From contig OY843768.1 of NCBI GenBank assembly GCA_963693095.2, positions 1,024,001-1,088,000 of the forward strand: DNA of 64,000 bases, in the 5' to 3' direction. The stretch is from Cenarchaeum sp. (GTDB lineage Archaea > Thermoproteota > Nitrososphaeria > Nitrososphaerales > Nitrosopumilaceae). Numbering within the stretch: position 1 is the stretch's first letter; each line of letters opens with the position of its first letter. The translations under genes and the position numbers were made by a program. This document shows positions 10,076-31,128 of the stretch, piece after piece. Below the pieces are notes generated by a model that saw only the letters and a program-made list of their open reading frames with translations, searched no databases and was not told the DNA's origin.

Positions 10076-10119
10076 GGGCAAAGAAATCTGCAATCGTTCC
10101 AGGATTGTGCGCGCAGGCA

Positions 10120-12809: not shown

Positions 12810-12813
12810 CGCC

Positions 12814-13095: not shown

Positions 13096-13258
13096 GGGGC
13101 ACATGGGCGGATCAAGGGTAAAAAACTGTTTTGGGCGCCCACAGGAGCGGGAAGGTCAGGGCCGCGCAGCGATGGCACATGGCGCGTTCGAGCGGGCGCC
13201 TGCCGCCGATCATAATCATGCCAAAGTTGGGCAACGTGCCGCCACAATGCGCGATCCA

Positions 13259-13690: not shown

Positions 13691-13791
13691 ACGGCGCGCA
13701 CATAGCCGCCAATCTCCAAGAGCTCTGGCTTTTTCTTTCTCTCCTTTGGCTCGGCTGCCTTGGCCTTGCCATCAGACTTGTCCTTGCCCAT
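13687..13791 (-). CDS. Putative 34-aa Lys-rich microprotein (MGKDKSDGKAKAAEPKERKKKPELLEIGGYVRAV)
   Basis: ATG-TGA ORF; stop overlaps TTG of the downstream membrane ORF (TTGA). Confidence 0.35.
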   Translation of the reverse strand: MGKDKSDGKAKAAEPKERKKKPELLEIGGYVRAV

Positions 13792-13808
13792 CAGATGGCC
13801 GGAGACTC

Positions 13809-14354
13809 GGCGTCGTTATAAATATTCCAGGGTCATGCGCGTATGAGGCCAGCACCTCTCCGCCCATTTGGACAAATGGGCGCGATCTCGACCAATCCAT
13901 TTACCGCTGCGGCGCCTGCCTGGGCATGAGCGGTGGCGGTGCTGATCTCGTAATGTGCCAGTGCCGGCAAGGCGTAGACAGCAATGCTGGTGCCACGCGT
14001 GGCGGGGTTAGCCCTCGTCATCTGACATGTAGGGGCAGAGCCTGGCGAACTCGAGCTCGGCGGCGGGCGCCCCACGTTGCCTGGATCGGGCGCGAGGAGC
14101 ACCTGAGCAACCGCGGCGAGTGGCTGTGGGACAACGGCTACGGCCGGAGGCCGTCAGGAGAGACGACGTTCTCCACGATCAAGCTGGTGTTCCGCGACCA
14201 CGTGAGGGCGCTGAACTGGGGCCAGGTGGTCCGCGAGGTGGCATTCATGGCGTACGCGTACAACCGGCTGATCGACATGGCGGGCGGTCCGGGGTGAGCC
14301 GCGGCCTGGGGCGCCATGCGTGGCACGCGCGGTCACCGGTTATGAAACAACGCC
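13809..14354 (+). mobile_element. Degenerate, internally deleted IS5-family (IS903-group-like) element
   Basis: C-terminal transposase fragment ~14060-14297 (W...GYGRR..GETTFSTIK..F...V.A......EV..MAY.YN); right end TTATGAAACAACGCC 14340-14354; decayed left end GGCGTCGTTATAAAT at 13809. Confidence 0.7.
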
Positions 14355-14436
14355 GTACACGATGACCCTGCCATACCACCTTGAGGCACAAGAAACCTCA
14401 TGGCATCATGGAACAGGCCAGTCATGCGCGTTCCCG

Positions 14437-15456
14437 TCACCCAACCCTGCGTATCCTCTCAGAGCGCTGACCGGGAACGTCAATCACGTACCTTCCGTCG
14501 CCGAGCTGCTCAAACCACTCATAGAGAACCTGCACGTTTCCCGTGAGATCCCGCCGGCTCGGAACCGGCACGTCAGTGCAGTTGTCCTGTATCCACTCCT
14601 TTACACGTCCAAAGTACGTCTCTGGGTCTATGAATGAGTCCATCTGTTGCACAAACGGGTGCGCAAAGAATCGTGATGCCAGCTGTGCGCGAAACTCTGC
14701 CTCTGACAGACCCAGCTCTATACCATAGTTTGCCAGGTCATGGAACACACATGCTGCCACCTCGTCATCATCAGACGGCTCTAGTCCCTGCCCCATTCTC
14801 GCGTATCCGGACACGAGGTCATCAACGCTCCTAGTCATCGGCAGTGCCGATACCAGAAACTTGTCTGGCTGCATTCTCACAAGCGAGTCAAGCTCATCCT
14901 CTGTCTTTGGTGGCTGCGGCTGTTTCCTAATCCATGCAGAAAGCTTGTCATACATTTCATCATCCACAAGCCGTGATTCGCAACGTATGCGCTCAAAGTA
15001 CACACGGTCATCCGGTGAGGCCTCTTTTACAAGCACGCCCATCTCATGGTTGCCGCCCTCGTGCATTCCCCTGCGCGACATGTTTCCCGTGCAGAGCACA
15101 TAGTGGCGCAGTCCGACCGAGACAACCTTTAGGTGGATTTTAGAGTTCACGTAGAGCCTGATGTCCTGCTCCTTGCAGTACGGATACAGGGACAGCTCGG
15201 ATGAGCCTGACACAAGATCCCTAGTGTCCCACGTCGTGATGATCACCACCTTGGAGTCGATGCCGTCTAGGAGCTCCCTGACCACGTCTGTCCGGATATA
15301 GGGGACGATGATGTGGATCGTCTCGCCGCTGCGCGAGTGCTCCTCAATATAGGCCCTGACGCGCGCATAGAGGGGGCTCTGAAACGTGGGCTGCTCGTCG
15401 GTCAATCCGGCGCGCACGCGCGGGGTTCCCGTATATGGATGGTTGGAAGAGGCCAC
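14437..15456 (-). CDS. Phospholipase D-family (restriction endonuclease-like) nuclease domain protein
   Basis: IIVPYI; IHLKVV...TGNMSRRG...NHE (HxK with degenerate D); true start may be downstream. Confidence 0.75.
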   Translation of the reverse strand: MASSNHPYTGTPRVRAGLTDEQPTFQSPLYARVRAYIEEHSRSGETIHIIVPYIRTDVVRELLDGIDSKVVIITTWDTRDLVSGSSELSLYPYCKEQDIRLYVNSKIHLKVVSVGLRHYVLCTGNMSRRGMHEGGNHEMGVLVKEASPDDRVYFERIRCESRLVDDEMYDKLSAWIRKQPQPPKTEDELDSLVRMQPDKFLVSALPMTRSVDDLVSGYARMGQGLEPSDDDEVAACVFHDLANYGIELGLSEAEFRAQLASRFFAHPFVQQMDSFIDPETYFGRVKEWIQDNCTDVPVPSRRDLTGNVQVLYEWFEQLGDGRYVIDVPGQRSERIRRVG

Positions 15457-15608
15457 AAGGCACAGAAACGATCAACAGAGAAATGTGGCGCAAGCGTGTA
15501 AACTGAGCACATCATTGAGATCTACTCCAATGAAAAGGTGCAAGTATGAGCATAACAAGCACGTAGTCAAGATGCTTGTTCAAACAACTAAACCACTTAA
15601 CTCACACA

Positions 15609-15961
15609 AGCGTTGTTTCATAACCTCTCCCGGGTATCATTCCCGCATGCTCCCCTGCCCGGCGTCCTTCGCACGAGGCACGCGGCAGTTTAACCAAGTC
15701 ACAAATGGATCGGCGCGTGCGATGGCTGGTGTCATGGACGCAAAGTACGTTGACAGAGAGAAGATGTTCGTCATTGGCTGGTACACTAGGGGCAAGCTAG
15801 TGCCTCGCGTCGTCCGCGTCCGCGCGCATGGCAAACATCCTGTCCCTGCCAACGTACTTTGCGTTCTCTGTGCCAGCCAACGCGATGTCAGCTCACGAGC
15901 CGAGCCATTTAGGGTTAAGTCGTGGACGTCACGTGCATAGACGCGGTTATGAGATAGGGCC
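15609..15961 (+). mobile_element. Second IS903-like remnant/MITE
   Basis: GCGTTGTTTCATAACC (15610-15625) is the exact reverse complement of 14338-14353; decayed right end GGTTATGAGATAGGGCC (15945-15961) matches 14338-14354 at 13/17. Confidence 0.55.
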
Positions 15962-16202
15962 ACAGATGCGGCAGGCTCATAACCATTACCAATCACAACA
16001 GATTTGTATCATGTAATACTAACGCAGTTCAAAAGATTTTAAAATAGTATTGTTATTCTACGTGTCATTCAAAACAAATCAAAAAAAGAGCGAACAGTAG
16101 AATTAAAAAACAAAAATTATTGCAGGAGTTTAGGTTTGAGGACATTAAAGAAGTTGATGAACAAATAATGAATAGACACATACAGAATAAAACTTCTATA
16201 AA

Positions 16203-18026
16203 TTATTTATCTAATTTCTTACGAATCGGATTTAAATCGATTTCTTTAGTGATTATATCTATAAGACGATTATGGCGTTTGAGTATTTCGTCGACATTCC
16301 AGATTGGAATTTCAGTTAATTCTTTTGTTATTTTATAAGTTGGTGATTTGCCATATACAATTTTTTTGTCTTCAAATGATTTTTTGCCAGCATCAACATT
16401 ATATTCATGAGCTAAAAGAGTTTGATTACCAATTAATCTATAATGCTTGGTATGAATAATATTAATAATTTGTTTAGGGGATTTGCCAGCAATTTCTTTG
16501 TTGTGGGTAAGAATATAGTCGTTCCAGAGATCATGATCTTTAGGCATTATATGTTCGACGGTTGTGCCAACACGACTTATTTTGTCAGACTTTTCGTATT
16601 CAACTTCCTCTAAGAGGACCTGAGCTTGACGGCCACGTGCAAAATCTTTAGTGTACAAAACACCTTTTATCGCTTCGTCATCAGGATATTCATTACCGAT
16701 TAATATCTTGTCAGAGATTATTTTACCCAATGAAACACCTTTATAAATATCACAAATAACACCATATAATTTACGTTCATAATTTTTGGTTTCAAATATA
16801 CGTGTTATAACCATAACCCTGACATGATACTTAAAACATAGCGTGACTAAATCTTCAAAGGTTTCATGATCTTTGCGCTTCCAATATTTTTCATAACCTG
16901 CCAAAAGGACAGGATACACATAGATGGCGCCCATATCGTTAATTTTTTTAAGATAGTAAATGGTGTTCGGGCTATTTTGAAAGTGAATCGGATCAGCTGT
17001 TCAAATTTTTTCAAATACCTTTGACCAGGACGATAATTCATCTATTATCGTATCAGGCATCATGCCAGAGTTTATCAATTTTTTGAACCCATTAGGGATT
17101 AGCTTGAGGTGCGGGACAGTTTTGGGACGATATTTATTTAAAAGTAGGTAATGGTTTAGAAATTTGTCAAGCTTGTAATTAGAGCCATTATAACTAGTCA
17201 CATTGTCAACTATGCCCTTCCATTCACGATCATAACGCTTTGTAATCTTATCTCCATCTGTGTTTTGTTCTATCATGCTCAGCAGATATGCCTTAACATG
17301 ATCAGCCGGATTAAGTTTTATTCCACGGTTGTTGATTAATTCAAACATACGATATATGTCTGTATGGCGAGCATAAGAAATGTGATAAACGAAGAATTTA
17401 TTCAAGACATTATTAATATATTCATAGGCCTGATCAATGTCATGTTCGTCCTTATGAGGAAGTTTTGCCACATGGAGGCGAATTTTAGTATACGCAGATA
17501 TTAGCCTCATGTTAGATTTGTTGCTATACTTTGGCTTGAGATCAGTTGCGGTATGTCCAACATTACGTTTAGGTCTAGGTTCTGGTTCAAAAGGAATAGA
17601 TATGAGCATCTCGTGAAAAAGATCTTTGTCGGTTTGGCTCAGAGTCAAGATAGGGGCAGAGCCGTTAATAGTCGATTTGTCGTCAATATGCAAGATTCGA
17701 CTAAGAGTTTTCAAATATTTTTGAGCGTTATTGTATTTTTTATGTTTATCAAAAAAGTTTCTGGCACAGATCAGCAATAATAACGCAGTGGTTAGGCGTT
17801 GTTGACCATCAATTATCGTGGTAGGTTGAGCAGAGTCGTTGTTTGTGGTGATAATCAGTCCGAATGGATGTTCTTCATCATTGCGAACTTTATCCAAATC
17901 ATCAAGAAAGTCAGCCACATGTTTTGGTTTCCATGAATAGCCACGTTGCTGGGAGGGGATGACATAGTGTGTGTTAGATCTAAGCACTTTTTTCAAGGGT
18001 TGCTTGTCCACAAGAAAACGACTCAC
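16203..18026 (-). pseudogene. DUF262 + DUF1524 (HNH) protein, SspE/GmrSD-like, interrupted by one in-frame TGA at 17001-17003
   Basis: YVIP.QQRGYSW, IIDGQQRLTT, FELINNRG (DUF262); TVEHIMPK and IGNQTLL...N (HNH); the two ORFs share a frame and the 22 codons between them are sense. Confidence 0.85.
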
Positions 18027-18404
18027 TAGCCAGTAATTAAACTTAATCTGCTGCCTAGCCAGGCAGAGGAGTGCAGGCCAATAGCTCGATAGGCGGAAAT
18101 CTGACTAGACGCGATCTAGTAGCGGAACACACCGATGGGAAATTCTAGCACCACATCAGGCAATATGAAGGGCAGGTTACAGAAAAGGCCATGTAGTCAA
18201 TATCCGTCATGAGGCTAGATGACATGGGGTAAACAGAACAAAATCAGCCACATGGTATGGCAAGTGCTCCAATCAGCTCATTTGGCTGGCATAGGAGGCA
18301 TCACTGGCCACAGTCTGAGACCTTCCGGCCGCAGATCAACCCCCCGGCACGCACTGTGGGTGAAAACAACATCAATAATGGGTTGATCGCAGGCACAACC
18401 AAAT

Positions 18405-18457: not shown

Positions 18458-19297
18458 ATGACGCGCCACGTGTGCGGCATATCGGGCGGCAAGGACTCTA
18501 GCGCGCTGGCCGTCTACATGAGGGACAAGGTTCCGGACATGGAATACTTCTTTTGTGACACGGGGGCCGAGCTTCCCGAGACGTATGCGTACATCAACAA
18601 GCTAGAGGTCGTCCTCGGCAAAAAGATTGCCCGCCTCAACTCTAGCCGCGGGTTTGACCACTATTTCGAGGTCTTCAAGGGATGCCTGCCGTCCCCGCAG
18701 ATGAGGTGGTGCACAAAGCTCCTAAAGATAAAGCCGCTCGAGGAGTGGCTCGGCGATGACGAGTCCGTCTCATATGTCGCCATACGCGCCGACGAAAAGA
18801 ACCGCAAGGGGCACGTGTCATCTAGACCCAACATAACTACCCAGTACCCGTTCATCGACGATGACATTGACCTCGATGGCGTGAACCGCATACTCGAGGA
18901 GGCCGGCATTGGCCTGCCCGACTATTACAAGTGGCGCACGCGCTCGGGCTGCTACTTTTGCTTTTTCCAGCGCAAGGCTGAATGGGTCGGCCTGCAGCAA
19001 CACCACCCAGAGCTCTTCAAGCAGGCAGTCGCAATCGAGAACAAGGTCCTAAAGGACGCAGGCGCCAATGGTGATGCGTCATTTGCCGATCACGCAATGG
19101 AGGGCAGGCAGTACACGTGGTCGCAGGGAGAGACACTCATACAGCTAGTCAGCCGAAAGGACCAGATACTAGAGAACCACAAGGCCGCAATGGAGCGCTC
19201 CAAGGGAAAAAGGAAAAACCTGCCGCTAGTGGACGTCTTAGGCGGAGCGCTAGACGACGAGGAGGACACAAAGGCATGCACAATGTGCCATCTATAG
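18458..19297 (+). CDS. sspD: PAPS-reductase-family protein, SspD-like
   Basis: PP-loop SGGKDS, DTG.ELPETY, PS...RWCT, RSGCYFCFFQ...EW, C-terminal CxxC; context with desulfurase, DUF4007 and ATPase. Confidence 0.85.
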   Translation: MTRHVCGISGGKDSSALAVYMRDKVPDMEYFFCDTGAELPETYAYINKLEVVLGKKIARLNSSRGFDHYFEVFKGCLPSPQMRWCTKLLKIKPLEEWLGDDESVSYVAIRADEKNRKGHVSSRPNITTQYPFIDDDIDLDGVNRILEEAGIGLPDYYKWRTRSGCYFCFFQRKAEWVGLQQHHPELFKQAVAIENKVLKDAGANGDASFADHAMEGRQYTWSQGETLIQLVSRKDQILENHKAAMERSKGKRKNLPLVDVLGGALDDEEDTKACTMCHL

Positions 19298-19336
19298 TGT
19301 GGTCAACGACCCACCTGCGTTCAAGCGGAGGGCGAC

Positions 19337-20563
19337 ATGGAAGATAACAACGGTCGTGCTGGCACACACGGTTCGGGCAATGTCACGTACATGGACTATA
19401 ACTCTACTACTCCCGTGGATCCACGCGTCATTAGGGAGATGGAGCCGCTGTTCAGCACATGGTATGGCAACCCGTCAAGTGAGTATCACCGATATGGCCG
19501 GGACGCAGTGGCTAGGGCAGAGCGCGCACGCGCGCAAGTTGCCGAGCTTGTCGGCATGGGTTCACCCGATGTCATATTCACGTCAGGCGCCACAGAGGCC
19601 AACAACCTTGCGCTTCGGGGAATGGCCGAGGGGGCCGGAAGGCGCATTCGCATACTAGTCGGCGCCGCAGAGCACAAGTCCGTCCTAGAGGCAGCCGATG
19701 GCCTAGCCGAGCTCGGCCTAGCCACCACAGGCAGCGTGCCGGTGGGCAGTGACGGCGTCACTGACTGCGACGCCCTAGCCAACGCGCTCTCCGGGGACAA
19801 GGTCGACCTAGTCTCGATCATGGGAGCCAACAGCGAGACAGGCGTCGTGCAGCCGATCGGGCAGATCGCCGAGATTGTCCACGCGGCAGGCGCGATATAC
19901 CACTGCGACATGACTCAGGGGGTCGGCCGCATCCCCTTTGGCGCCTCTGGGCTAGGCGTTGACATGGTCTCGCTGAGCAGCCACAAGTTATACGGGCCCA
20001 AGGGGTGCGGCGCGCTCGTGGCGAGCAGGGAAGTGCGCAAGAGGCTGCGCGCAACGATGCGCGGTGGCGGCCAGGAAAACGACCTGCGCAGCGGAACGCT
20101 CAACGTGCCCGGCATCGTGGGGTTTGGCAAGGCATGCGAGATCGCCTCCAAGGACGGGCTTGCCGATGCCCCCCGGCAGCAGGCGCTCAGGGACGCACTA
20201 GAGGAGAGGCTCACGTCCAGGATTTCCGGGACGAGCGTGAACGGTGCTGATGCCCCACGCCTGCCCAACACGTCAAACGTGAGGTTTGAGGGCGTGTCTG
20301 CGATGGCAATGATCGCAAACGTGCCGTCACTGGCAATCTCGTCCGGAAGCGCGTGCTCGGCGTCCACGGTCTCCCCCTCGCACGTTCTGCTGGCCATGGG
20401 AATGGGCGACGAGGCGGCCGACGAGTCGCTCAGGTTCTCCATTGGCCGTCCGACAGTGGAGGCTGACATTGACGCCGCAATAGGCCAGGTTGTCGCCGCA
20501 GTCGAGCGCATAAGGGGCATGACAGAGAATGCCATGACAGTGGGTGAAGGACATGCACATTGA
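19337..20563 (+). CDS. sspA: Group I cysteine desulfurase, SspA/DndA/IscS-like
   Basis: YMDYNSTTP, GNPSS, FTSGATEANN, SSHK (PLP Lys), SSGSAC (catalytic Cys). Confidence 0.88.
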   Translation: MEDNNGRAGTHGSGNVTYMDYNSTTPVDPRVIREMEPLFSTWYGNPSSEYHRYGRDAVARAERARAQVAELVGMGSPDVIFTSGATEANNLALRGMAEGAGRRIRILVGAAEHKSVLEAADGLAELGLATTGSVPVGSDGVTDCDALANALSGDKVDLVSIMGANSETGVVQPIGQIAEIVHAAGAIYHCDMTQGVGRIPFGASGLGVDMVSLSSHKLYGPKGCGALVASREVRKRLRATMRGGGQENDLRSGTLNVPGIVGFGKACEIASKDGLADAPRQQALRDALEERLTSRISGTSVNGADAPRLPNTSNVRFEGVSAMAMIANVPSLAISSGSACSASTVSPSHVLLAMGMGDEAADESLRFSIGRPTVEADIDAAIGQVVAAVERIRGMTENAMTVGEGHAH

Positions 20564-21551
20564 GCAGGCGGTTCCAAATCCGGGGTTTGCGCGGCACGAG
20601 ACGTTTCACCTCCGCTTTGGGTGGCTCAAGAAATGCTATGACGGGACGAGTCAGGACGAGCGCGTGTTCCAGAGTGAGGACGCCCTAGTCAGGCTAGGCG
20701 TCGGAAAGAACATGGTTCGCGCCATTCGCTTTTGGGGCATCGCCGCAAAGATCATACGGCAAAAGGTCGAGCCCGGCGAGGAGAGCAGGCGCGGGAGCCA
20801 GGAGGTCGAGGTCACCGAGATGGGACGCAGGATATTTGACGGCAAGACCGGCCTGGATCCGTACCTCGAGCGCCCCGAGACGCTGTGGCTGCTCCACTGG
20901 CTAATCTACGCCCCGCCGTCGTCAATCCCCGCATGGTGGGTGATCATGAACGACCTAAGTGCGGTGAGGGTGCCTGTGGGCGAGCTTCCCGGATATGTGC
21001 GCGGCAAGGTGAGCACCGTGGACACGTGGGCAATACCCAACGAAACCTCGATCAAAAAGGACACGGACGCGTTTGTGCACACGTACGCCTCAAAACGCGA
21101 CAATATCGGGGACATGGAGGATTACATGGACTGCCCGTTTCGCGCGTTGCGCATAGTAAAGGCCGACACTTCGGCAAAGTCCACCATACAGTTCTCCATC
21201 GGCATAAAGCCTGGCATGAGCGCAGACATTGTTGCATATATCTGCCTAGACTTTTTGAATCGTCTTAGAACGGAGAGCCGAACCGTGTCGGTGAACTATT
21301 TGACAACCGAGCCTGGGGGGCCTGGTCACGTGCTAAAGCTTGATGAGCCAAGCCTCACAAAACTGCTGACCGAGGCGTCTAAAGTCAGTGGACGATCCAT
21401 CAAGGTGTACGATGTCAACGGCGTCGCACACATATCATTCCCAAAAGACATAATGAAAGAGGCCACGCAGATACTAGAGCAGATATACGCCACAGACAAG
21501 ACACGGGTTCGGCGCAAGGCACCCAAGGTCGTGATGAGGGCACGCAAATGA
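20544..21551 (+). CDS. sspB: DUF4007 family protein, SspB-like
   Basis: FARHETFHLRFGWLKK, LGVGKNMVRAIRFW, DPYLE...TLWLLHW signature. Confidence 0.88.
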   Translation: MKDMHIEQAVPNPGFARHETFHLRFGWLKKCYDGTSQDERVFQSEDALVRLGVGKNMVRAIRFWGIAAKIIRQKVEPGEESRRGSQEVEVTEMGRRIFDGKTGLDPYLERPETLWLLHWLIYAPPSSIPAWWVIMNDLSAVRVPVGELPGYVRGKVSTVDTWAIPNETSIKKDTDAFVHTYASKRDNIGDMEDYMDCPFRALRIVKADTSAKSTIQFSIGIKPGMSADIVAYICLDFLNRLRTESRTVSVNYLTTEPGGPGHVLKLDEPSLTKLLTEASKVSGRSIKVYDVNGVAHISFPKDIMKEATQILEQIYATDKTRVRRKAPKVVMRARK

Positions 21552-24500
21552 CACGCGAACGGCCACCAATGGCAAAAGTATCCAAAAAGGCAAAGGTCAA
21601 GACAAAGGGCAGACAAGGCACGGTGAAAAAGCCAGTTCAGCGAAGCGAACCGTTGACTAGGCTAGTCACGCCTGTTGACTCGTTTGTGCGCTCGACGAAC
21701 ATAGAGAGAGACAGGGCAGGATCAGAGTCCCTTGGGACATACATTGCAGACGCCTCAGTCCTAGACACGGTTCATCGGGTGTCTGCCTCCATGGAGTCAG
21801 GCGGAAGGGCATTTTCCGTGACAGGCCCGTACGGGTCTGGCAAGTCAACACTAGCCGTGTTTCTCAACGGCCTAGTCGCCCCGTCAGCCGATCCTGACTG
21901 GAAGTATGCGCATCGCCTGCTGCAGGGCATCGCGCCTGCCATGTCCAGGCAGATCGTCGCCGGACGCAAGCACCTCAAGGCTCACAGGGGCGGGTTTGTC
22001 AGGTGCTTTGTGGTGTCAAGCCGCGAGCCGGTGGTCGTGACCGTCGTGAGGGCACTAGAGCACGGAGTAAAGGAGCACTTTGGCCCAAAATACTCCAACA
22101 GGGACTTTGCCACGGCTAGCCAGCTGCGGCGCGTGTGTGACGATATACGCCGGACGGGCAAGGCAGGGCTGTCAGGCACGTCCCACGCAGGCGCAGTCAT
22201 GGAGATAATCAGGGACATATGCGCCAAGACGCCCATCATGATCGTGATTGACGAGTTTGGCAAAAACCTCGAATACTTTGCAGAGAGCAAGTCCGGAGAC
22301 GGCGACCTGTTCCTCCTGCAGACCATGGCCGAGGCCGGTGCCGGAAAGAATGGCATTGCGCTGTTTATGATCACCATGCAGCACATGGCATTTGAGGAGT
22401 ATGGTGTGGGAATATCGGCTGCGCACAGGAGGGAGTGGGCAAAGGTGCAGGGGAGGTTTGATGACATTCCATTCTCAAACTCGGCAGGGCAGACAAGGCT
22501 CCTAGTTGGCAAAGCACTCCGTGTCACCAATAATCTAAAGCGTCAAAGGACAGTAGGAAAATGGGCAAGAGATCACAGAAGGGTATTGCATAACCTAGGC
22601 TTAGACAGAGATCTTAGTGAAGAGGTGTTAACATCATGCTACCCACTCCACCCGCTAGCCCTGCTCGTTCTGCCAGAGCTGTGCGCCAGGTACGGGCAAC
22701 ATGAGCGAACCCTAATGTCATTTGTCGCCGGAAGTGGAAAGAATGCAGTTCCCGCATTCATAGACAATGAAACTTGGTCAGGAAACAAACTCCCTTCCAT
22801 GGACATAGAGTCCCTGTATGACTATTTTGTGTCTAGCCACCAGTCGACCAGTTCAGCGTCTGCGGCAAACGTGACGCGTCTCATGGAGATCACATCAATA
22901 ATACGTGACTCGTATGGACTTTCCAGGCAGGCGATAAAGACGCTCAAGACGATCGGGGTGCTAAACCTAATCTCGACATCAGGTCCCCTGCGTGCCTCCA
23001 AGGGCGTCATAGAGTATGCCATTGGCACGCATATTGAGGAGGCCATCGAAGAGCTAGAGGCAGGGTCGCTCATAACATATCGTCCATACGCAGACGAGTA
23101 CAGGATATGGCGCGGAACTGACGTGGACATACAGGCCTCAATAGATGTTCTATCCAAGCACTATTCCGGCGTGCCCCTAGCCCACACGCTAGAGCGTATA
23201 GCGCCGCTAGACCCCGTCATAGCCGCACGGCATGGAATCCGAACAGGGACGATGAGAATGTTTGAAAGGAGGTTTTTTGGGCAAAAGGAGGGCGAGGTTG
23301 ACGTGTCGAGGCAGGACTATGACGGCATTGTCCTGTACTCTACAGAAAAGGATGGCAGTCTGCCAAGGATCAGCACCGGCACAAAACCGGTAATTCTCGT
23401 AAGGCCCGCATCTAGCACACACGAGATAAGCGGAGTTGCGCTAGAGACTGCCTCCATAATGGAGATGCTTGAGTCTGATGAATCCATAAAGGGCGACTGG
23501 GTGGCAAGACGCGAGCTTTGGAGTCGCATGAGCCATGGCATTACCACAATCGAGTCCTGGCTTGAGCACGCATACGGAAACGATGCAGAGTGGTGGCTGT
23601 ATAACGGGACAAAACCCCACAGGATTGACGAGGCAGGCGGGGCAGCAGTGTCATCTGCAGCAGACATTGCGTATCCAGGAACACCGTACATTCACAATGA
23701 GATGATCAACCGCACAAAGCTGTCCATGCAGGCATCACGCGCCCGCCTCATGCTAATCAACGCGATGATCAGAGACCACACAAAGAAAAACCTTGGGATA
23801 GAAGGATGGGGGCCGGAACGCGCAATGTACGAAGCCGTGTTAAAAAAGACTGGACTGCACAAGCGCAATGGCAAAGTATGGAAGATTGCAGCGCCAACGC
23901 AAGATATACTAGCCGCATGGGAGTCAGTAAGCAAGTCAATTGAGCGTTCACAAAAACATCGCGTGAATGTGGGAGAAGTATATGCGGCATTGCAAACACC
24001 TCCCATAGGTGGAAAAGGCGGCATGGCACCCGTTCTCCTGTCAGCTGCGCTAATCATCAAGAGTGGAGACGTGGCGCTATACGAACACGGGACATACTGT
24101 CCAAACATTGCACCAGAAGTGGTGGAACGACTGCTAAAGAACCCCACACATTTTGAGATAAAGCACTTTGCTAGCAAGACAAAACTCAAAGCAAATGTGA
24201 TCCAAAACGTTGGCAAAGAACTAGGAATAAAAAATCCAAGCCTGCTGGGAATAGTAAGCTCGCTCGTAAAGACTCTGAGTGGGTTGCCAAAATACACAAA
24301 GACAACAAAAATGCTCGAAAAGCACGACCTGATGGTCAGAAACGCAATACTCACGGCCACAGAGCCCGACGTTATGCTGTTTGAAGCGCTCCCCAAGGCA
24401 CTAGGACTAGGACTAGAACTGTCAGGGAGATCAGCCTCAAATAGAGTCGTTAGCGAGTTTGCGCACAACCTAGCTATGTCAATCAAGTCAATAGAGCTGT

Positions 24501-25030
24501 TTTATCCGCGCACGCTAAAAATGCTGCAGAGTAGCCTGCTCAAGGCAACACAGACAAAAGAACGACAGCGCCTAGAGGCCATAGCAGCATCGCTATCGAA
24601 AAGGACAACTGCTGCAGATCCCAAAATGCGAACATTCCTGAACGCCATAACAACAAGCACTCTAGAGACTGAAGACTGGATCGAGTATGTAGCAATGATT
24701 ATGACGGATGCTCCAATGAGTGAATGGAATGACGACATGTACGAGTTATTCCATGCCAATTTACAAGAGATAGCAGGCAGGTTTTCGCGCCTAGTCGCCC
24801 TAAACTTTGAAAAGACGTCAAAACACATGAGCACAGATCCATCATTGTACAGAGTCACGGTTACAAACCAAGACGGAACGGAAAATACCAACATAGCGTC
24901 AATAAACAAGCGACAGGAAAAGAACGTAAATGAGATCGTTGAACGTATGATCGACGTAATCCAAAAAAACAGAGGAGAACGTCCACAGATCGTTTTAGCA
25001 TTAATTGCGTCATTAGCGAAGAAGTTATAA
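21548..25030 (+). CDS. sspC: Large P-loop ATPase, SspC-like (1160 aa)
   Basis: F.RS.NIERD, Walker A GPYGSGKS, Walker B IDEFGK.LE, EW.KVQGRF, YPLHP, YGQ.ERTL.SF; ATGA-coupled to the DUF4007 gene. Confidence 0.85.
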   Translation: MTRERPPMAKVSKKAKVKTKGRQGTVKKPVQRSEPLTRLVTPVDSFVRSTNIERDRAGSESLGTYIADASVLDTVHRVSASMESGGRAFSVTGPYGSGKSTLAVFLNGLVAPSADPDWKYAHRLLQGIAPAMSRQIVAGRKHLKAHRGGFVRCFVVSSREPVVVTVVRALEHGVKEHFGPKYSNRDFATASQLRRVCDDIRRTGKAGLSGTSHAGAVMEIIRDICAKTPIMIVIDEFGKNLEYFAESKSGDGDLFLLQTMAEAGAGKNGIALFMITMQHMAFEEYGVGISAAHRREWAKVQGRFDDIPFSNSAGQTRLLVGKALRVTNNLKRQRTVGKWARDHRRVLHNLGLDRDLSEEVLTSCYPLHPLALLVLPELCARYGQHERTLMSFVAGSGKNAVPAFIDNETWSGNKLPSMDIESLYDYFVSSHQSTSSASAANVTRLMEITSIIRDSYGLSRQAIKTLKTIGVLNLISTSGPLRASKGVIEYAIGTHIEEAIEELEAGSLITYRPYADEYRIWRGTDVDIQASIDVLSKHYSGVPLAHTLERIAPLDPVIAARHGIRTGTMRMFERRFFGQKEGEVDVSRQDYDGIVLYSTEKDGSLPRISTGTKPVILVRPASSTHEISGVALETASIMEMLESDESIKGDWVARRELWSRMSHGITTIESWLEHAYGNDAEWWLYNGTKPHRIDEAGGAAVSSAADIAYPGTPYIHNEMINRTKLSMQASRARLMLINAMIRDHTKKNLGIEGWGPERAMYEAVLKKTGLHKRNGKVWKIAAPTQDILAAWESVSKSIERSQKHRVNVGEVYAALQTPPIGGKGGMAPVLLSAALIIKSGDVALYEHGTYCPNIAPEVVERLLKNPTHFEIKHFASKTKLKANVIQNVGKELGIKNPSLLGIVSSLVKTLSGLPKYTKTTKMLEKHDLMVRNAILTATEPDVMLFEALPKALGLGLELSGRSASNRVVSEFAHNLAMSIKSIELFYPRTLKMLQSSLLKATQTKERQRLEAIAASLSKRTTAADPKMRTFLNAITTSTLETEDWIEYVAMIMTDAPMSEWNDDMYELFHANLQEIAGRFSRLVALNFEKTSKHMSTDPSLYRVTVTNQDGTENTNIASINKRQEKNVNEIVERMIDVIQKNRGERPQIVLALIASLAKKL

Positions 25031-25070
25031 CTACGTCACTAGATATAGACTGTGCGCGGCACCAACATGA

Positions 25071-26693
25071 TCAAGTGTCCCAGTAGGCTGAAAAATATTC
25101 ATACACATCGTCCAATCCACCATATTCAGTAATGATATTGTCCACAACGTCAATAAGCTGAAATTCTTCTGTCCCGCCTAGTTCTAATCCTCGCATACCT
25201 CTTCCAATCATTTGGCCATAAACCACCACAGATGTAGTTGGTCTAGCAATAACCACAGCATCGATATTTGGAGCGTCAAAACCAGTGGTGAATATATCAT
25301 AATTAAATATGAATTGAATGTCCCCATTTTTAAATTTGTTGATCACATCGTGTCTGTAGTTATGTGGCGTACTACCATCAACATGAATAGCGGATTTTCC
25401 CAGAGCAATCAATAATCCGCACAAGAGTTTTGATTGGCGGACACTTGCATTGAAAACGATTATGTGTTTGCAAGATTCAGATAGCTCCAGTAATTTTTGG
25501 ACAATTTTTAAATTACGTGGCACGTCATCAGCGATTTTTTTTAGTACTGAATCTGGATATTCATGATTAAAACTTTTTTGAATTTGATTCCATTCATCTT
25601 TAGTTAAATAAAATTTACGTTTTGTTTGTAATGGTTTTCGTATACACCTAGAAAGAATATTTTTATCTTGGAGATAAGAAATTGGACTTTGAACACCAGA
25701 GTCAATTGTGATGATTTGATTATCAAAAAAATCAGCCAGCTTGTCTGAATGTTTTGTTCGCCCAGGGGTTGCAGAAAGACCAATAATCTTAGTTTGTTTA
25801 TAAAATATATCACAAAGGGCTTTTATAATTTTTTGGTAAGTTGGTGCCAAAGCATTGTGTGCTTCGTCAGCAACTATTAGATCAGCTTTTAATGATAGTT
25901 GTTCGTTAAAAAGTGGATTACGAATTTTTTGATACATGGCGATAATTAATTGTGAGTGATCAAAGTCGAGATCAGGGATAGGGTGTTTCCCCCAAAGTCT
26001 AGAAATAGTGAGATCGCACTTAGCAACATGAGGCCAGATTGCAAGAAACGTATCGTATGCTTGTTCGCACAGTTCAGAGCGGTCGGCAAGCCAAACAACA
26101 GTTCTAGATTTGTTTGAATTTAAAAATGATGATACGATCTCCATGGCTACCCTAGTCTTACCTGATCCAGTGGGCATTTGAACAACAATTTTTGAATTTG
26201 GGTATTCAGCGTACTGCCGAGCTTTAAAATATACATAAGCCTGGTAATCTTTTAGAGTAGTATAGGTATGAATTGATTTAGGTATGAAATTTGCAGCTGG
26301 CACAGGTTTAACGCTATGTGGAATTAAATAATCAGGATATTGAAAGGCACTTACAAATGATTTAGTTATATCGTTATTAGACCAAACAAACCTAGATGAA
26401 CGTTTTCGAAATTCAACATCATCAATATCGGCATTGGTGTACGATATGTTTGATTTTTGTACAAAATCCAAAAATTGTGAAGAGGGAGCATATTTGAGCA
26501 AATTAGAACGAAACTGATGATTTGAATATTGATCAATATTCAGTGCGTGGTGTAATTGTCCAAGAAGATCTTTATCGTGCCGAAGCGGCAAATCAATGTC
26601 AGGGTCAATTGATTTTAATAGCAACTCCCATGAATCAATAAAAGGATCAAGGTTTTCATATAGTTGATCAAATGGGAGGTGTTGATTCAGCAT
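25071..26693 (-). CDS. Superfamily 2 DEAH helicase (ResIII-like), 540 aa
   Basis: LKDYQ, MPTGSGKT, DEAH, SATPGR, TGFDAP, QMIGRGMRG. Confidence 0.92.
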   Translation of the reverse strand: MLNQHLPFDQLYENLDPFIDSWELLLKSIDPDIDLPLRHDKDLLGQLHHALNIDQYSNHQFRSNLLKYAPSSQFLDFVQKSNISYTNADIDDVEFRKRSSRFVWSNNDITKSFVSAFQYPDYLIPHSVKPVPAANFIPKSIHTYTTLKDYQAYVYFKARQYAEYPNSKIVVQMPTGSGKTRVAMEIVSSFLNSNKSRTVVWLADRSELCEQAYDTFLAIWPHVAKCDLTISRLWGKHPIPDLDFDHSQLIIAMYQKIRNPLFNEQLSLKADLIVADEAHNALAPTYQKIIKALCDIFYKQTKIIGLSATPGRTKHSDKLADFFDNQIITIDSGVQSPISYLQDKNILSRCIRKPLQTKRKFYLTKDEWNQIQKSFNHEYPDSVLKKIADDVPRNLKIVQKLLELSESCKHIIVFNASVRQSKLLCGLLIALGKSAIHVDGSTPHNYRHDVINKFKNGDIQFIFNYDIFTTGFDAPNIDAVVIARPTTSVVVYGQMIGRGMRGLELGGTEEFQLIDVVDNIITEYGGLDDVYEYFSAYWDT

Positions 26694-28357
26694 TATTCTG
26701 GATCTTTATCAGTAGCGCCCTCAATTTTTTCATAAAGATAAAACGTCCAATTACGCATCAATCTCTTAATCACCTCGGCATTTTGTTGTTGGTCCGCATT
26801 GAATTCACGCCGAGCAATCGCAAAAGTGCCCAACGCAACATAAACGGAGTTTTTTATGTGCTTAAGTGCAAGTATTTGAGATTTGTCAAGATTAGGCGAT
26901 ATTGTGTCTAGTTTATTAAATGAATCAAAGAATAATTTCCAAAATGGGTGAAGCATGTTGAGTTGGAGTAATGTCCTATTACCTTCAGACACGATATCAA
27001 CGAACGGGCCAGCTGATCCTAAATTATAATTTTCATGAATCACATATGGTTTATCTGTTAGTTGCTGAAACAAAACGTCATTTTGAGCTTGGTTTTCTAC
27101 TCCCGCAGCTTTGAGAATGCTTGCAACCTCCTGATCATCTGGAGGAAGAGGATCACTTTGACCTTGCAGCCACTGTTCGGCCAATTCCGGAGATGCGGTA
27201 TTACCAATAACCTCTTGTTTTTTAGTTTTTTGATCTTCGCGAACTTTACGTATTAGCTTACGATAATCATAGATAGTACTGTTAACATGTTTTTGGATTA
27301 TTTCACGCATTTCAGGCAAAGGACGGGCACCAACTTTAATGGTCTTGACTTTAAACCAGCGATCAAGATCAGCATTAAAGGATATTTCACAACCCCAAAA
27401 TCGGTCAATTTCACGAGAATCCCCTTCATCCAGACTATAATGAGGTATTTTTCCAAACATCACCTCACGATCGTTGCGAAGTATGGAGAAACTAGTGGAC
27501 GTAACAAGCTGACGATCCTTATTTGCGATAGTGCCTCCCGAACCCTCTTTTTCCCACCAGGATTGGGGCAGTAACGATAATCGGATTGTGATAGGACTAG
27601 TGCCATGTTGCTTATCAGGAGGAGGATCATAAGTGTGGATTTTCATCGGAATGCTAATTTCTCCAGCAAGCTTTGAGACTTCATCGCCATATTTGGTTTG
27701 AGTTGCGTATAAAGGATCCAATGCAGGGATTTCTTTCCCATCAAGAAAAATATGGCGTTGGTTAGGATTTTGAACCACTTTGGAATTTGAGATTGTCTGT
27801 TTGCCGATAAATTTACGATAAGTTCTGCCTATCCATTTGATCAAGTCGTCAGAACGCGCATCTGCCATGTCAAGCTTTTTCCAGATCACAAGAGTGCCAC
27901 TATTCGCAATTAAATCAGAATAGTCTTCAGGAATGTTTTTTCTTATAGGAGGGGGGATTTTAGAACCAATTTCAAGAAAAGTGTAATACCATTCACCGCC
28001 TTTGGTTTTTGAGTACACCTCAATATGGCGACATTGGCTAATCGCACCAAGAATCATCCCCACGCCAAATCTTCCAATGCCTGATCTGTCATTATACCTA
28101 GACGAATATCCGAGAACCAAACATTTATGTAATGTGTCGGGATTCATGCCAATACCGTCATCTCCAAAAGCCATTTCAACAAATCTGTAATGTGGTTTAC
28201 GGGTTTCAACCTTTTGGGTCATGATCCTGATGTTGGTTGCCTCAGCCTGTATAGAGTTGTCTATGACTTCCCCGATGGCCGAGACTGTATCAAAATCCGA
28301 ATGTCGCATAGATTCAAGAGCTTGTTTGTCGTCAACTGGGCTTATAGGCGTGTCCAC
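26693..28357 (-). CDS. GHKL/MORC-family ATPase, 554 aa
   Basis: EVIDNSIQA, DDGIGM, GRFGVGM, GTLVIW; TAATG overlap with the helicase. Confidence 0.88.
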   Translation of the reverse strand: MDTPISPVDDKQALESMRHSDFDTVSAIGEVIDNSIQAEATNIRIMTQKVETRKPHYRFVEMAFGDDGIGMNPDTLHKCLVLGYSSRYNDRSGIGRFGVGMILGAISQCRHIEVYSKTKGGEWYYTFLEIGSKIPPPIRKNIPEDYSDLIANSGTLVIWKKLDMADARSDDLIKWIGRTYRKFIGKQTISNSKVVQNPNQRHIFLDGKEIPALDPLYATQTKYGDEVSKLAGEISIPMKIHTYDPPPDKQHGTSPITIRLSLLPQSWWEKEGSGGTIANKDRQLVTSTSFSILRNDREVMFGKIPHYSLDEGDSREIDRFWGCEISFNADLDRWFKVKTIKVGARPLPEMREIIQKHVNSTIYDYRKLIRKVREDQKTKKQEVIGNTASPELAEQWLQGQSDPLPPDDQEVASILKAAGVENQAQNDVLFQQLTDKPYVIHENYNLGSAGPFVDIVSEGNRTLLQLNMLHPFWKLFFDSFNKLDTISPNLDKSQILALKHIKNSVYVALGTFAIARREFNADQQQNAEVIKRLMRNWTFYLYEKIEGATDKDPE

Positions 28358-28597
28358 GGATCAGAACACCGGGGACTACATAATAAACATATCTCAAAAC
28401 ATGGACTTCAATTACGCATGAAATTAGAGCTCACGCTAGCGAGTACACATGATGATGCGTAGGCCAAGGCTCCCAGGTGCCAGAGGCACCACGTGGCGCG
28501 CACATAGGTAGCAGGCACTCCCAGGCCGCATCTTGGCTACCACGTATTTAAAAACCCGAAATAACGCTTATACGATCAACAGCCCGCTCCAAGTCCA

Positions 28598-29245
28598 ATG
28601 TCAGGACAAGAGCACGCCACGCCATGCCCTACTTGCGGGAGCACCAGGGCCGCAGCGGAAGCCGACAGGGTGCCAAAAAAGGAGATCAGCGCGTATGAAG
28701 GCCGGATGAATCGGCTCAGGCTAGAGGCCGAGGGCGGACCACTCGCCCCCATACCAGGATCCGCAGTCCCCATATTCCATGTCCTCTGCGACGCCGGCGT
28801 GGTTGACTGCGGCATGTCTCCGAGCAATGGAAGCGTCGCGGAGCGCCTGGCACTGAACATACTGGTATACTTTGCAAAGCACAGGTTTGGGTGTCCCGGA
28901 CTGGAGAGGTTTGACTACGAGTGGAGCATATCAAGTCCCCACTCGATCAAGCTCGAGGTCGACCTTGATGACATTACTGATCTCCATTCAGAGCCGGCCC
29001 AAGAGTGGGACAGAAAGGACGAGTTTGTCAAGTTTGCGCAAAAGCACGGCAACGACGCCGAATGGCTCCAGATTGCCTCGACGATATGCCACATAGATGA
29101 CGAGATGATGAAGGATTCCGTGACGCTCACGCGAGATGAGATGATCGACGAGGCGCGCCAGTGGTACATATTCAATTCCAAGGCAGTGCCAGGGGTGTAT
29201 GACGATATTGTCGACATGCTAGCAAGGACACGGGGCGACGCGTAG
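28598..29245 (+). CDS. Hypothetical protein, distant SocA/DUF4065/YwgA-like, paralogue 1
   Basis: N-terminal CPTCG; LVYF...F...F.YEW...SP.S..L..DL and WLQIAST patterns. Confidence 0.6.
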   Translation: MSGQEHATPCPTCGSTRAAAEADRVPKKEISAYEGRMNRLRLEAEGGPLAPIPGSAVPIFHVLCDAGVVDCGMSPSNGSVAERLALNILVYFAKHRFGCPGLERFDYEWSISSPHSIKLEVDLDDITDLHSEPAQEWDRKDEFVKFAQKHGNDAEWLQIASTICHIDDEMMKDSVTLTRDEMIDEARQWYIFNSKAVPGVYDDIVDMLARTRGDA

Positions 29246-29344
29246 CCCAAGGCGCCGGACACTGCATAAGTGCCACATGAAGCGCACATTAGGCAGCAAG
29301 AGTCCATAAACCGTGCTACGCCTACCGCGTATTTAAAAACCCGA

Positions 29345-30436
29345 TGTATTGTACAAAAAGTAGGAGCGGGGGCCAGAGGGCTTGCCGGGCGCGGATCCGG
29401 GAGCCCGCGGAGGGCCTTCGGGTCCGGCAGGCTGCCGAAACACACGTTTGGGGGCCTCCGGCGCCGGCGCGCCATGCCGGTCAGGAGGCTGGACGCGCGG
29501 GCGCTCCGGTACATCGCGAGGACGCTTGCGACCAGGAGCACCGGGGCAGTGGCGCGCGAGCTGGGGATCTCGCCGTCGTGGGCCCGCAAGCTCCGCGCGC
29601 ACTGCCGGCGGACCGGCGCGCCGCCGGAGCCGCGGCCGATGGGGAGGCCGCGCAGGCCGATCACGCGGGAGCAGGCCGACGAGGTCCTCGCCGCGCACTC
29701 GCGCGACCCCGTCGGCGTGGTGCACCTGGTCAGGCTCATGCGGCTCAACAACTCAAAAATAGCGTACGGCGCGGCGTACCGCATATTGTCTGCGGAGGGA
29801 CTGGTCAGCAGCTCGCCGGCGAGGTCGAGGAGGCGCAAGTGGGTGAGGTTCGAGAGAAAGTACTCCAACGCGATGTGGCACGTGGACTGGCACATAATGA
29901 AATACGGCCCCCTGAGGGGCTCGCACCTCATAGTGTTCCTCGACGACGCGTCGAGGTGCGTGACGGGGTTCGGTGTCTTCCCCGAGGCCACGTCGGGCAA
30001 CACTGTGCTCGTGCTGCACCACGCGATCGGGAGGTTCGGCAAGCCGGCGCAGGTGCTCTCGGACCACGGGACGCAGTTCACGGCGAGCCGGCGCGGCGCC
30101 CCGCGCCGCAGCTGGAAGCCGACGCTCTTCGAGCGGGAGCTGCTCGACGCCGGGATAAAGCACGTCATGGCGCGCGTCGGCCACCCCCAGACCAACGGCA
30201 AGGTCGAGAGGTTCTTCCGGACGCTCGAGACGGAGATCGACCGCCATGGCGGGGTCGCCGAGTTCATCGGGCACTACAACGAGGAGAGGCTCCACTTCTC
30301 CCTCGACATGGAGACCGGCGAGACGCCCCTGCTGGCCTTCAGGAGGCGGAGGGCCGACGGGCGGGTCCGGGCGGAGAACCCAGGGTGGATGGAGGTGGAC
30401 TCGGATGGGTAGCGCTCCTACTTTCCGTATAATACA
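29345..30436 (+). mobile_element. Intact IS481-family insertion sequence (1092 bp) with 15-bp target-site duplication
   Basis: TGT...ACA termini; ~24-bp imperfect IRs TGTATTGTACAAAAAGTAGGAGCG / CGCTCCTACTTTCCGTATAATACA; TATTTAAAAACCCGA at 29330-29344 and 30437-30451. Confidence 0.93.
29474..30412 (+). CDS. IS481-family DDE transposase
   Basis: N-terminal HTH; WHVD, LDDASR, SDHGTQF, HPQTNGKVERF, YNEERLH. Confidence 0.93.
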   Translation: MPVRRLDARALRYIARTLATRSTGAVARELGISPSWARKLRAHCRRTGAPPEPRPMGRPRRPITREQADEVLAAHSRDPVGVVHLVRLMRLNNSKIAYGAAYRILSAEGLVSSSPARSRRRKWVRFERKYSNAMWHVDWHIMKYGPLRGSHLIVFLDDASRCVTGFGVFPEATSGNTVLVLHHAIGRFGKPAQVLSDHGTQFTASRRGAPRRSWKPTLFERELLDAGIKHVMARVGHPQTNGKVERFFRTLETEIDRHGGVAEFIGHYNEERLHFSLDMETGETPLLAFRRRRADGRVRAENPGWMEVDSDG

Positions 30437-30489
30437 TATTTAAAAACCCGAGATAACGCTTATACGATCAGCGGCCCGCTCCAAGGCCA

Positions 30490-31128
30490 ATGTCCGAGCA
30501 AGAGCACGCCACGCCATGCCCGACGTGCGGGAGCACCAGGGCCGCAGCGGAGGTCGGCAGGGTGCCAAAAAAGGAGATTAGCGCGTATGAAGGCCGGATG
30601 ATTCGGCTCAGGCTCGAGGCCAAGGGCGGGCCACTCGCCCCCATACCGGGATCCGCTGTCCCCATATTCCACGTCCTCTGTGACGCCGGCGTGATTGACT
30701 GTGACATGTCCCCAAAGAACGAGGACAACGACACTCGCCTGTCCCTGAACATGCTGGTCTACTTTGCAAAGCACAGGTTTGGGTGTCCGGGGCTGGAGAG
30801 GTATGTCTTTGATTGGAGCGCGGTGAGCACATTCTCGATGAAGCTAGAGCACGACTTTGATGACATGGCAGAATTTCATTCAGAACCAGCCCAAGAGTGG
30901 GACAGAAAGGCCGAGTTTGTCAAGTTTGCGCGCAAGCACGGCAACGACGTCGAATGGCTCCAGATAGCCTCGGCTATATGTTACATAGAGGACGAGATGA
31001 TGAAGGATTCCGTGACGCTCACGCGAGATGAGATGATCGACGAGGCGTGCCAGTGGTACATATTCCATCCCGAGGCCGTGCCAGGTGTGTACGACGACAT
31101 TGCGGGTTCGCTGTTGAGGACGGGGTGA
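30490..31128 (+). CDS. Hypothetical protein, distant SocA/DUF4065/YwgA-like, paralogue 2
   Basis: Closely similar to 28598-29245 over nearly its whole length, including upstream DNA. Confidence 0.6.
   Translation: MSEQEHATPCPTCGSTRAAAEVGRVPKKEISAYEGRMIRLRLEAKGGPLAPIPGSAVPIFHVLCDAGVIDCDMSPKNEDNDTRLSLNMLVYFAKHRFGCPGLERYVFDWSAVSTFSMKLEHDFDDMAEFHSEPAQEWDRKAEFVKFARKHGNDVEWLQIASAICYIEDEMMKDSVTLTRDEMIDEACQWYIFHPEAVPGVYDDIAGSLLRTG

Follow-up and report, generated by a model that had tools for sequence, protein, structure and literature searches.

Restriction machineries coupled to the phosphorothioate (PT) modification of DNA have been described in several forms. DndFGH and SspFGH damage DNA that lacks PT, and PT represses the ATPase of DndFGH, whereas SspE is activated, and not inhibited, by PT (PMC8092258; PMC11662687). 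SspE and DndI are both DUF262+DUF1524 proteins (PMC11662687). In PbeABCD a fusion of HKD and superfamily 2 (SF2) domains, PbeA, works together with the CxC ABC ATPase PbeC and the DndE-like PbeD (PMC10853773). SspE or SspFGH are found beside only ca. 15% of 2,678 sspBCD loci (PMC8092258) and, according to a 2024 reappraisal, Dnd writers are mostly uncoupled from DndFGH (PMC10853773). Prokaryotic operons that combine a MORC ATPase, an SF2 helicase and a nuclease have been predicted to be restriction-modification (R-M) systems (Iyer, Abhiman, and Aravind, 2008; PMC2292703). Here we analyze a stretch of 64,000 nucleotides from the archaeon Cenarchaeum sp. (hereafter the window; positions 1,024,001 to 1,088,000 of contig OY843768.1, assembly GCA_963693095.2), in which two adjoining genes, encoding a MORC-like GHKL ATPase and an SF2 helicase, face an sspDABC operon for the writing of PT.

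Together with a gene for a protein of the phospholipase D (PLD) type, these two genes are linked to PT writer genes across distant lineages, and this association involves Dnd as well as Ssp. We consider it rather probable that the three genes form a restriction cassette that is functionally coupled to the PT writers and cuts unmarked DNA. As an effector cassette built from known domain families it would be part of PT-based defense, probably representing a set of enzymes, hitherto undescribed, for the destruction of unmarked foreign DNA. The preliminary description of this DNA had proposed an undescribed system. What appears to be new, however, is the coupling to PT only, which is apparently undescribed; operons with MORC, SF2 helicase and HKD have been known as a kind since 2008 (PMC2292703). 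The positions of the cassette and the writer in the window, with lengths in amino acids (aa) and G+C contents (GC), are:

26693-28357, minus strand: MORC-like GHKL+S5 ATPase (554 aa, GTG start, GC 0.41)
25071-26693, minus strand: SF2 helicase/translocase, RadD/Hef/XPB/SauUSI-like (540 aa, GC 0.36)
14437-15456, minus strand: PLD/HKD-like putative nuclease, proposed third cassette member (GC 0.56; from Pfam, PADLOC and homologues)
18458-25030, plus strand: sspDABC, phosphorothioate writer (PADLOC, full profile lengths)
18458-19297, plus strand: sspD (PADLOC SspD, 2.8e-107)
19337-20563, plus strand: sspA (PADLOC SspA, 9.3e-127)
20544-21551, plus strand: sspB/DUF4007 (PADLOC SspB, 2.6e-84)
21548-25030, plus strand: sspC, 1160 aa, convergent with the helicase gene (PADLOC SspC, 7e-302)

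Comparison with Described Systems

No named system was matched to the cassette in PADLOC, NCBIfam or Pfam, in agreement with the preliminary description, and SspFGH, SspE/DndI and PbeABCD could each be set apart. SspFGH, the first suspicion, was ruled out against its published description. SspF contains a Walker A motif and SspH an FtsK-like C-terminus, with no other recognizable homology in the portion of Wang (2021; PMC8092258) drawn on here, whereas the GHKL ATPase has no P-loop, the sole P-loop protein of the cassette is the DEAH helicase, and neither Pfam nor fold comparison revealed an FtsK/SpoIIIE-like region in the ATPase or the helicase. Both are three-gene modules beside sspBCD that are proposed to damage non-PT DNA and may coexist with a DUF262-type effector, but the cassette consists of GHKL, SF2 helicase and PLD proteins that all have Pfam matches (that to PLDc_2 being below the cut-off). 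DndFGH is, likewise, a PT-linked and ATP-dependent restriction complex, for which repression of both ATPase and translocation by PT has been reported and which serves here as the model for self-protection; its components belong to unrelated families, i.e., a kinase-like DndF, a DndG with a winged helix-turn-helix and a HerA/FtsK-like DndH. SspE/DndI resemble the cassette in being PT-coupled effectors, and a homologue occurs in the same island (16203-18026), but each is a single protein with another fold. DndI/SspE as the identity of the pair was therefore rejected, this fold being that of the broken neighboring gene.

PbeA/dnd_restrict_1 and SauUSI share with the cassette the combination of a PLD/HKD nuclease and an SF2 motor, and PbeA also lies beside PT genes. 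The PADLOC profile of PbeA matches the helicase core only (75 bits, model positions 260-436 of 672), and PbeC and PbeD had no PADLOC match among the window genes scanned. In PbeABCD nuclease and helicase are a single polypeptide, whereas the cassette has two proteins plus a MORC-like ATPase, and no ABC ATPase. The type 1 operons of Iyer et al. (2008) combine MORC with a Rad25-like helicase, in a few cases with HKD, and are linked to DNA methylases (PMC2292703). With these operons the cassette has in common the GHKL+S5 ATPase, the Rad25/XPB-like helicase and HKD, to which roles in looping, unwinding and cutting have been ascribed. It differs in having a PT writer where they have methylase partners, and in having HKD as a separate protein; Dnd and PAPS are not mentioned in the portion of that paper drawn on here (PMC2292703).

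Of the named GHKL families, MzaB was the nearest by profile (NCBIfam 52.9 bits, PADLOC 38.6 bits), but it was rejected in view of the NCBIfam cut-off of 850 bits and the absence of Z1, AIPR or other Mza partners. BbrUII/HgiDII and Topo VI-B scored far under their NCBIfam cut-offs and were rejected as well. In the papers searched we found neither a description of the cassette nor a paper that pairs GHKL with phosphorothioation. MORC and GHKL are unmentioned in the main text of the 2024 Dnd reappraisal (PMC10853773), the supplement of which may list such neighborhoods, and in the main text of a 2026 BREX survey (PMC12839542).

Linkage of the Cassette to Phosphorothioate Writer Genes

Homologous loci were obtained from genome contigs, with one genome per species, by a scan seeded with the ATPase alignment, which gave 183 pattern matches, 102 relatives and 78 loci that were kept with up to 10 kb on each side. 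Their open reading frames (ORFs) were called and clustered together with those of the window, and the clusters were named using PADLOC and Pfam; after removal of 5 loci without a full GHKL ORF, 74 rows remained, including the window. The most common clusters after the ATPase were those of the helicase (40 loci), PLD (34) and cysteine desulfurase (29). Ssp clusters were also frequent (SspD in 29 loci, SspC in 27, SspB in 21), and Dnd clusters occurred as well (DndD in 14, DndC in 9, DndB in 9, DndE in 7). ATPase and helicase were found together in 39 of the 74 rows, and 33 of these 39 loci contain, within 10 kb, two or more genes of the sspBCD or dndBCDE sets, 27 of them with at least two of sspB/C/D and 6 with at least two of dndB/C/D/E. 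This adjacency spans archaea and many bacterial phyla, and often takes the form of sspD followed by GHKL in the same direction, or of a pair inside the ssp operon. The other six loci have sspD only (one), dndD only (one) or none of these genes (four, three of which are on cut contigs).

A replicate on metagenome contigs, seeded with the helicase alignment, yielded 80 loci, 45 of which hold both helicase and ATPase. PT genes lie beside the pair in 29 of these 45 (22 Ssp, 7 Dnd). The 16 pairs without PT genes have a flank of at most 3.6 kb on either side, and PT genes are present in all 16 pairs with a flank of at least 5 kb. More distant helicases without an ATPase neighbor have PT genes nearby in 4 of 35 cases. 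Among the 40 genomes nearest to the source genome, SspC and/or DndC was found in all 6 that carry the helicase and in 3 of the 34 that do not, counts that are descriptive only as these genomes are kin. The neighborhood statistics that had been proposed as a check thus place the pair beside PT genes in 33 of 39 genome loci and 29 of 45 metagenome pairs. The supposed link to ssp is strong, but it is not specific for Ssp and concerns PT writers generally, including Dnd. From this genetic linkage we infer that the module may read the PT status of DNA, as had also been suggested.

The helicase-linked ATPases came out as a single group of 40 rows in a quick maximum-likelihood tree (Shimodaira-Hasegawa-like approximate likelihood ratio test, SH-aLRT, 94). 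The ATPase of the window groups (SH-aLRT 99) with three copies from Nitrosopumilus/Cenarchaeum, two of which adjoin dndBCDE while a DndC match lies at 13.5 kb from the third; apart from the pair of the window this subclade is, thus, Dnd-linked. In one relative (G011) PLD, helicase and ATPase genes lie directly beside dndABCDE. GHKL and helicase co-vary in their pairwise identities (Spearman 0.72) to the extent that SspD and SspC do (0.73).

The ATPase-Helicase Pair and Its Products

Both ORFs are free of internal stops, the stop of the ATPase gene and the ATG of the helicase gene overlap as TAATG at 26693, and the two genes are predicted to be translationally coupled. With sspC ending at 25030 and the helicase stop codon beginning at 25071, a gap of 40 bp separates the pair from the writer. 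ORFs, coordinates and profile searches in Pfam, PADLOC and NCBIfam, in which no nuclease family matched the ATPase or the helicase, bear out the earlier picture of two intact, overlapping and nuclease-free genes next to sspC. Each cassette gene is single-copy in the source genome (2.0 Mb, completeness 99.55%, GC 0.60).

The ATPase matches HATPase_c_3 of Pfam (69.6 bits, cut-off 25, 3.6e-19), and the Bergerat motifs I-IV are invariant in an alignment of 40 homologues (E30/D33/N34/A38, D66-G68-G70, G93-G100 and G154-T155). Residues before Met17 are conserved among homologues, A13 being nearly invariant and S16 invariant, which favors the GTG start at 28357 over the recorded version of 538 aa. 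The AlphaFold model (predicted local distance difference test, pLDDT, 83.9) comprises GHKL+S5 and a helical C-terminus. The top Foldseek matches were MORC2, MORC4 and MORC3 over GHKL+S5, followed by Hsp90, and the MORC alignments span 413-440 columns and take in the S5 transducer (template modeling score by target 0.46-0.54). In a comparison of the family profile with Protein Data Bank (PDB) sequences MORC3 was also the best match (1.3e-8), followed by MORC4 and MORC2. The label "MORC-like" is used here to cover both MORC proper and paraMORC1-5, which are told apart by a MORC-specific motif (Iyer et al., 2008). The last ca. 170 residues fold into a mostly helical domain that includes a small sheet and has no recognizable relative.

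The helicase has Pfam matches above the cut-offs to ResIII (95.6 bits) and Helicase_C (58.9 bits), and a further match to DEAD. The SF2 motifs Q, I, Ia, II (DEAH), III, V and VI are present in two RecA lobes. Walker A (P174-T180), D276-E277-A278-H279 and motif VI (Q494/G497-R498-G499/R501-G502) are invariant across 38 homologues. Its model (pLDDT 89.7) shows a helical N-domain and the two RecA lobes, with RadD, Hef, SauUSI and XPB as top Foldseek matches. The N-domain of ca. 125 aa is confidently folded and helical, but poorly conserved and variable. A predicted complex of the helicase with ATPase residues 190-554 scored 0.01 and is uninformative either way.

The PLD-like Gene

The preliminary description suspected the PLD-like gene to be a partner of the pair. 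This was borne out by the gene neighborhoods: the PLD cluster, present in 34 loci, adjoins the pair in most of them. The gene of the window is the sole homologue in the source genome and its product is 48-57% identical to those of PLD genes adjoining GHKL-helicase pairs in related archaea. By these comparisons it is assigned to the cassette as its third member. H108, K110, N125 and E138 are invariant across 33 sequences. A search of the PLD profile against PDB sequences gave the PLD domain of SauUSI first (E 2e-4), and then PLD1/2, NucT, BfiI and Nuc. At the C-terminus a domain of unknown function is conserved. ESM Atlas look-ups of the C-terminal domains of PLD and ATPase returned unnamed or PLD-bearing clusters (<0.9) and gave no lead to a PT-reading domain.

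A Different Pair in a Sister Genome

A genome of the same genus (G004) is collinear with positions 8360-15436 of the window, as far as the point where the PLD gene begins, at 94.7% nucleotide identity. Its PLD and SspD are 92% and 96% identical in amino acids to those of the window, whereas SspA, SspB and SspC are 66%, 69% and 59% identical. In G004 PLD adjoins sspD with no gene between them, and the 2.95-kb low-GC segment with the GmrSD-like gene that separates the two in the window (15437-18391) is absent. Nothing follows sspC in G004. Genes for a helicase of 536 aa and a GHKL ATPase of 587 aa, with a 7-base overlap and a GC of 0.38, are located instead between sspD and sspA, in the order helicase>GHKL and not GHKL>helicase as in the window. 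With 34% (helicase) and 30% (GHKL) identity to the window proteins they represent a non-orthologous pair. Both sister genomes have, thus, kept PLD and sspD and carry one ATPase-helicase pair each, of different lineage and at a different position in the operon. This swap agrees with the co-variation of ATPase and helicase, and with PLD not tracking the ATPase (see below).

The pair of the window is compositionally foreign, with a GC of 0.36-0.41 against 0.60 for the genome, and its GC at third codon positions (GC3) is 0.18-0.47 compared to 0.58-0.83 for PLD, sspD, sspA and sspB. The GC3 of sspC drops from ca. 0.75 to 0.40-0.50 toward the low-GC pair. Judged from this gradient and from the identities with G004 (59-69% for SspA/B/C vs. 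92-96% for SspD and PLD), the ssp operon looks mosaic. The sspD of G004 (L164:7378-8139) encodes 253 aa compared to 279 aa in the window, while nucleotide similarity runs to 8227; insertion of the pair behind this gene may have changed its 3' end.

Variation in Gene Order and Gene Content

Two gene orders were found in the metagenomes, ATPase>(PC4)>helicase>PLD and helicase>ATPase>PLD. The protein between ATPase and helicase in the former has a PC4 domain (single-strand-DNA-binding, ca. 207 aa, Pfam 1.5e-7) and occurs in 17 loci of the genome set, which are bacterial (e.g., L016:11680-12318); it is absent from the window and the thaumarchaeal copies. The idea that this 207-aa protein is a split-off helicase N-domain was rejected, as the helicases have 536-558 aa with or without PC4. 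A DUF2196+AlbA_2 (Schlafen-type) protein follows PLD in 9 loci (e.g., L004:14324-15103), and no homologue of it was found in the source genome. A Rhodoferax metagenome-assembled genome (L019, 4030-12540) contains tandem cassettes, helicase>GHKL>PLD and then GHKL>PC4>helicase, with one sspBCD adjoining. In three Lachnospiraceae loci (L031, L059, L060) helicase-less ATPase homologues are preceded by a cysteine desulfurase, an ORF of 720 aa that equals PbeA in size, an ABC ATPase resembling DndD/PbeC and an HNH protein, so that members of the ATPase family may belong to Pbe-type systems as well.

Proposed Mechanism and Alternative Explanations

If the cassette restricts unmarked DNA, SspABCD would put PT on the host's own DNA, the helicase would act as an ATP-driven motor translocating on DNA, and the MORC-like ATPase would dimerize on DNA and, as an ATP-gated clamp or loop-former, link the motor with the nuclease, after the proposal of Iyer et al. 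(2008). The PLD protein would nick or cut the DNA, probably as a dimer since it has a single HxK site. PT on self DNA may turn the ATPase or the translocation off, so that only unmarked incoming DNA would be cut. PT is proposed as the off-signal by analogy, because PT represses the ATPase of DndFGH and SspFGH damages non-PT DNA. PT might be sensed by the conserved C-terminal domain of PLD or by the C-terminus of the ATPase, which is specific to its family. The ATPase-helicase pair may be a swappable unit, with PLD and sspD kept in both sister genomes.

Several observations weigh against this reading. The PLD protein lacks the D of the HKD motif HxK(x)4D(x)6G[ST]xN and its spacing differs, and its PLDc_2 score (19.5 bits) is under the Pfam cut-off of 27. 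In the window its gene is displaced by 9.6 kb from the ATPase-helicase pair and does not match it in composition (GC3 0.58-0.80 vs. 0.18-0.47), and the identities of PLD and GHKL show no co-variation among the loci (Spearman -0.09). The 7 Dnd-linked rows are scattered over the GHKL tree, for which 6 changes are needed, and the one-to-one pairing with a particular writer that would be expected of a strict cognate R-M pair is absent. Of the ATPase homologues without a helicase, 27 out of 35 have no PT gene nearby. The rows are not independent, with many kin, one locus of the replicate (L085) identical to a genome locus and two (L099/L100) that are seemingly one sequence. Finally, the insertion sequence (IS) ca. 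1 kb upstream and the broken GmrSD-like neighbor point to an island in flux.

The cassette could also be coupled to PT in another way than by restricting unmarked DNA. It may be activated by PT, as is SspE (PMC8092258; PMC11662687), or it may aid or regulate the modification, e.g., by target search or nick repair, a role for which MutL offers a parallel as a relative of MORC that works in repair with a helicase (PMC2292703). The single-strand-DNA-binding PC4-like protein in many bacterial cassettes and the position of the G004 pair inside the ssp operon would fit such a function. However, the conserved PLD-type nuclease partner suggests DNA cleavage. Moreover, most published ssp/dnd loci are, as far as the portions of these sources drawn on here go, without the cassette, so that the writers do not need it (PMC8092258; PMC10853773). 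We consider this alternative unlikely.

About equally unlikely is that the cassette is a self-contained, PT-independent restriction or defense system of the MORC type (type 1 of Iyer et al., 2008) that is adjacent to ssp or dnd only through the clustering of genes in defense islands. Against this, the cassette adjoins PT writers across archaea and many bacterial phyla, often in the same direction or within the operon, and PT systems are present in about 10% of prokaryotes (PMC12914056). Six ATPase-helicase loci have fewer than two sspBCD or dndBCDE genes. For five of them (L002, L008, L037, L052, L075) the genome was searched, and each of these genomes has a match to DndC or SspC outside the locus, in one case 13.5 kb from the ATPase gene, just past the fetched flank. 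In the sixth (L044) dndD and a cysteine desulfurase are present within the locus. No methyltransferase is conserved among the ORF clusters of the cassette loci. A PT-independent system would, on the other hand, account for the domain set, which equals that of the MORC R-M operons (PMC2292703), for the foreign composition of the IS-flanked pair and for its patchy distribution among relatives. It would also be in line with the plasmid of a Rhodobacteraceae isolate on which ATPase, PC4, helicase and PLD (annotated as "hypothetical protein" and "DEAD/DEAH box helicase") are surrounded by IS elements, with a PAPS-reductase gene ca. 9 kb away.

That the pair in the window is a stranded and non-functional remnant, parted from its nuclease in a decaying island as the 9.6 kb to PLD, the nonsense codon in the GmrSD-like gene and the IS481 copy and IS5 fragment at the edges might suggest, is very unlikely, as both ORFs are full length with all catalytic motifs kept, ATPase and helicase appear translationally coupled, PLD is intact and 92% conserved with respect to the sister genome, and the foreign composition argues for recent arrival over old decay.

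A cassette that cuts unmarked DNA in concert with PT writers might have a wider role. It is conceivable, although we regard it as doubtful, that GHKL-helicase-PLD is a widespread PT-reading restriction machine indifferent to the writer, i.e., to the single-strand marks of Ssp or the double-strand marks of Dnd, with several changes of partner, a pair that is hot-swappable between two gene orders and PLD as the constant part. In the source archaeon one cassette of Dnd lineage may then police both marks. If true, such a machine could explain part of the large share of ssp/dnd loci without a known restriction partner. More generally, one more effector cassette that recurs in this way would close some of the gap left by SspE, SspFGH and DndFGH, and prokaryotic MORC-like ATPases, which are related to the chromatin silencers of eukaryotes, would have a defined epigenetic mark to respond to. 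The two sister genomes would represent a natural swap, with the same nuclease and writer but different ATPase-helicase pairs.

Neighboring Genes and Other Observations

The source archaeon carries both Dnd and Ssp writers: besides sspDABC a complete dndB-C-D-E-A is present at C1:1599844-1607983, ca. 550 kb from the window. This dnd cluster contains a dndA-like cysteine desulfurase, and an apparently intact GmrSD/DndI-like gene adjoins it. Close to the cassette two further features were identified in the window:

16203-18026, minus strand: GmrSD-type gene, DUF262 + DUF1524, DndI/SspE-like, broken (GC 0.33-0.38)
29344-30436, plus strand: IS481-family insertion sequence (NCBIfam transpos_IS481, 2.8e-49)

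The two halves of the GmrSD-type gene match GmrSD_N and GmrSD_C of Pfam, respectively, and HEC-06/Orf5/SspE in PADLOC; read through, the gene has 607 codons, of which codon 342 (17001-17003) is the only in-frame stop. The preliminary description rightly noted an interrupted SspE-like gene beside intact modification genes, all of sspDABC being of full profile length. The interruption, from which it inferred an alternative module, is not the reason for the presence of the cassette, because related loci contain an intact GmrSD-like gene and the cassette together.

A scan of 24800-29000 for promoters and terminators, which used a bacterial consensus on an archaeal host, gave no excess over shuffled sequences. 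The IS481 copy, ca. 1 kb upstream of the ATPase gene, is multi-copy in the genome, with a twin of 100% identity at C1:1706695-1707787 and more copies elsewhere; it casts an antisense shadow in the form of a 450-aa ORF (28915-30267) on the other strand. A fragment of an IS5-family transposase (13653-14297; NCBIfam 2.7e-8, C-terminal part only) marks the left edge of the island. Two more GHKL proteins of 619-620 aa are encoded at C1:891192 and C1:670079 and share ca. 30% identity with the ATPase in the first 120 residues. The IS481 copy is flanked by paralogous segments (28542-29210 and 30434-31102) that are 86% identical, each of which holds an ORF of 212-215 aa without a family match (28598-29245 and 30490-31128); in the sister genome G004 two ORFs of this kind are located side by side.

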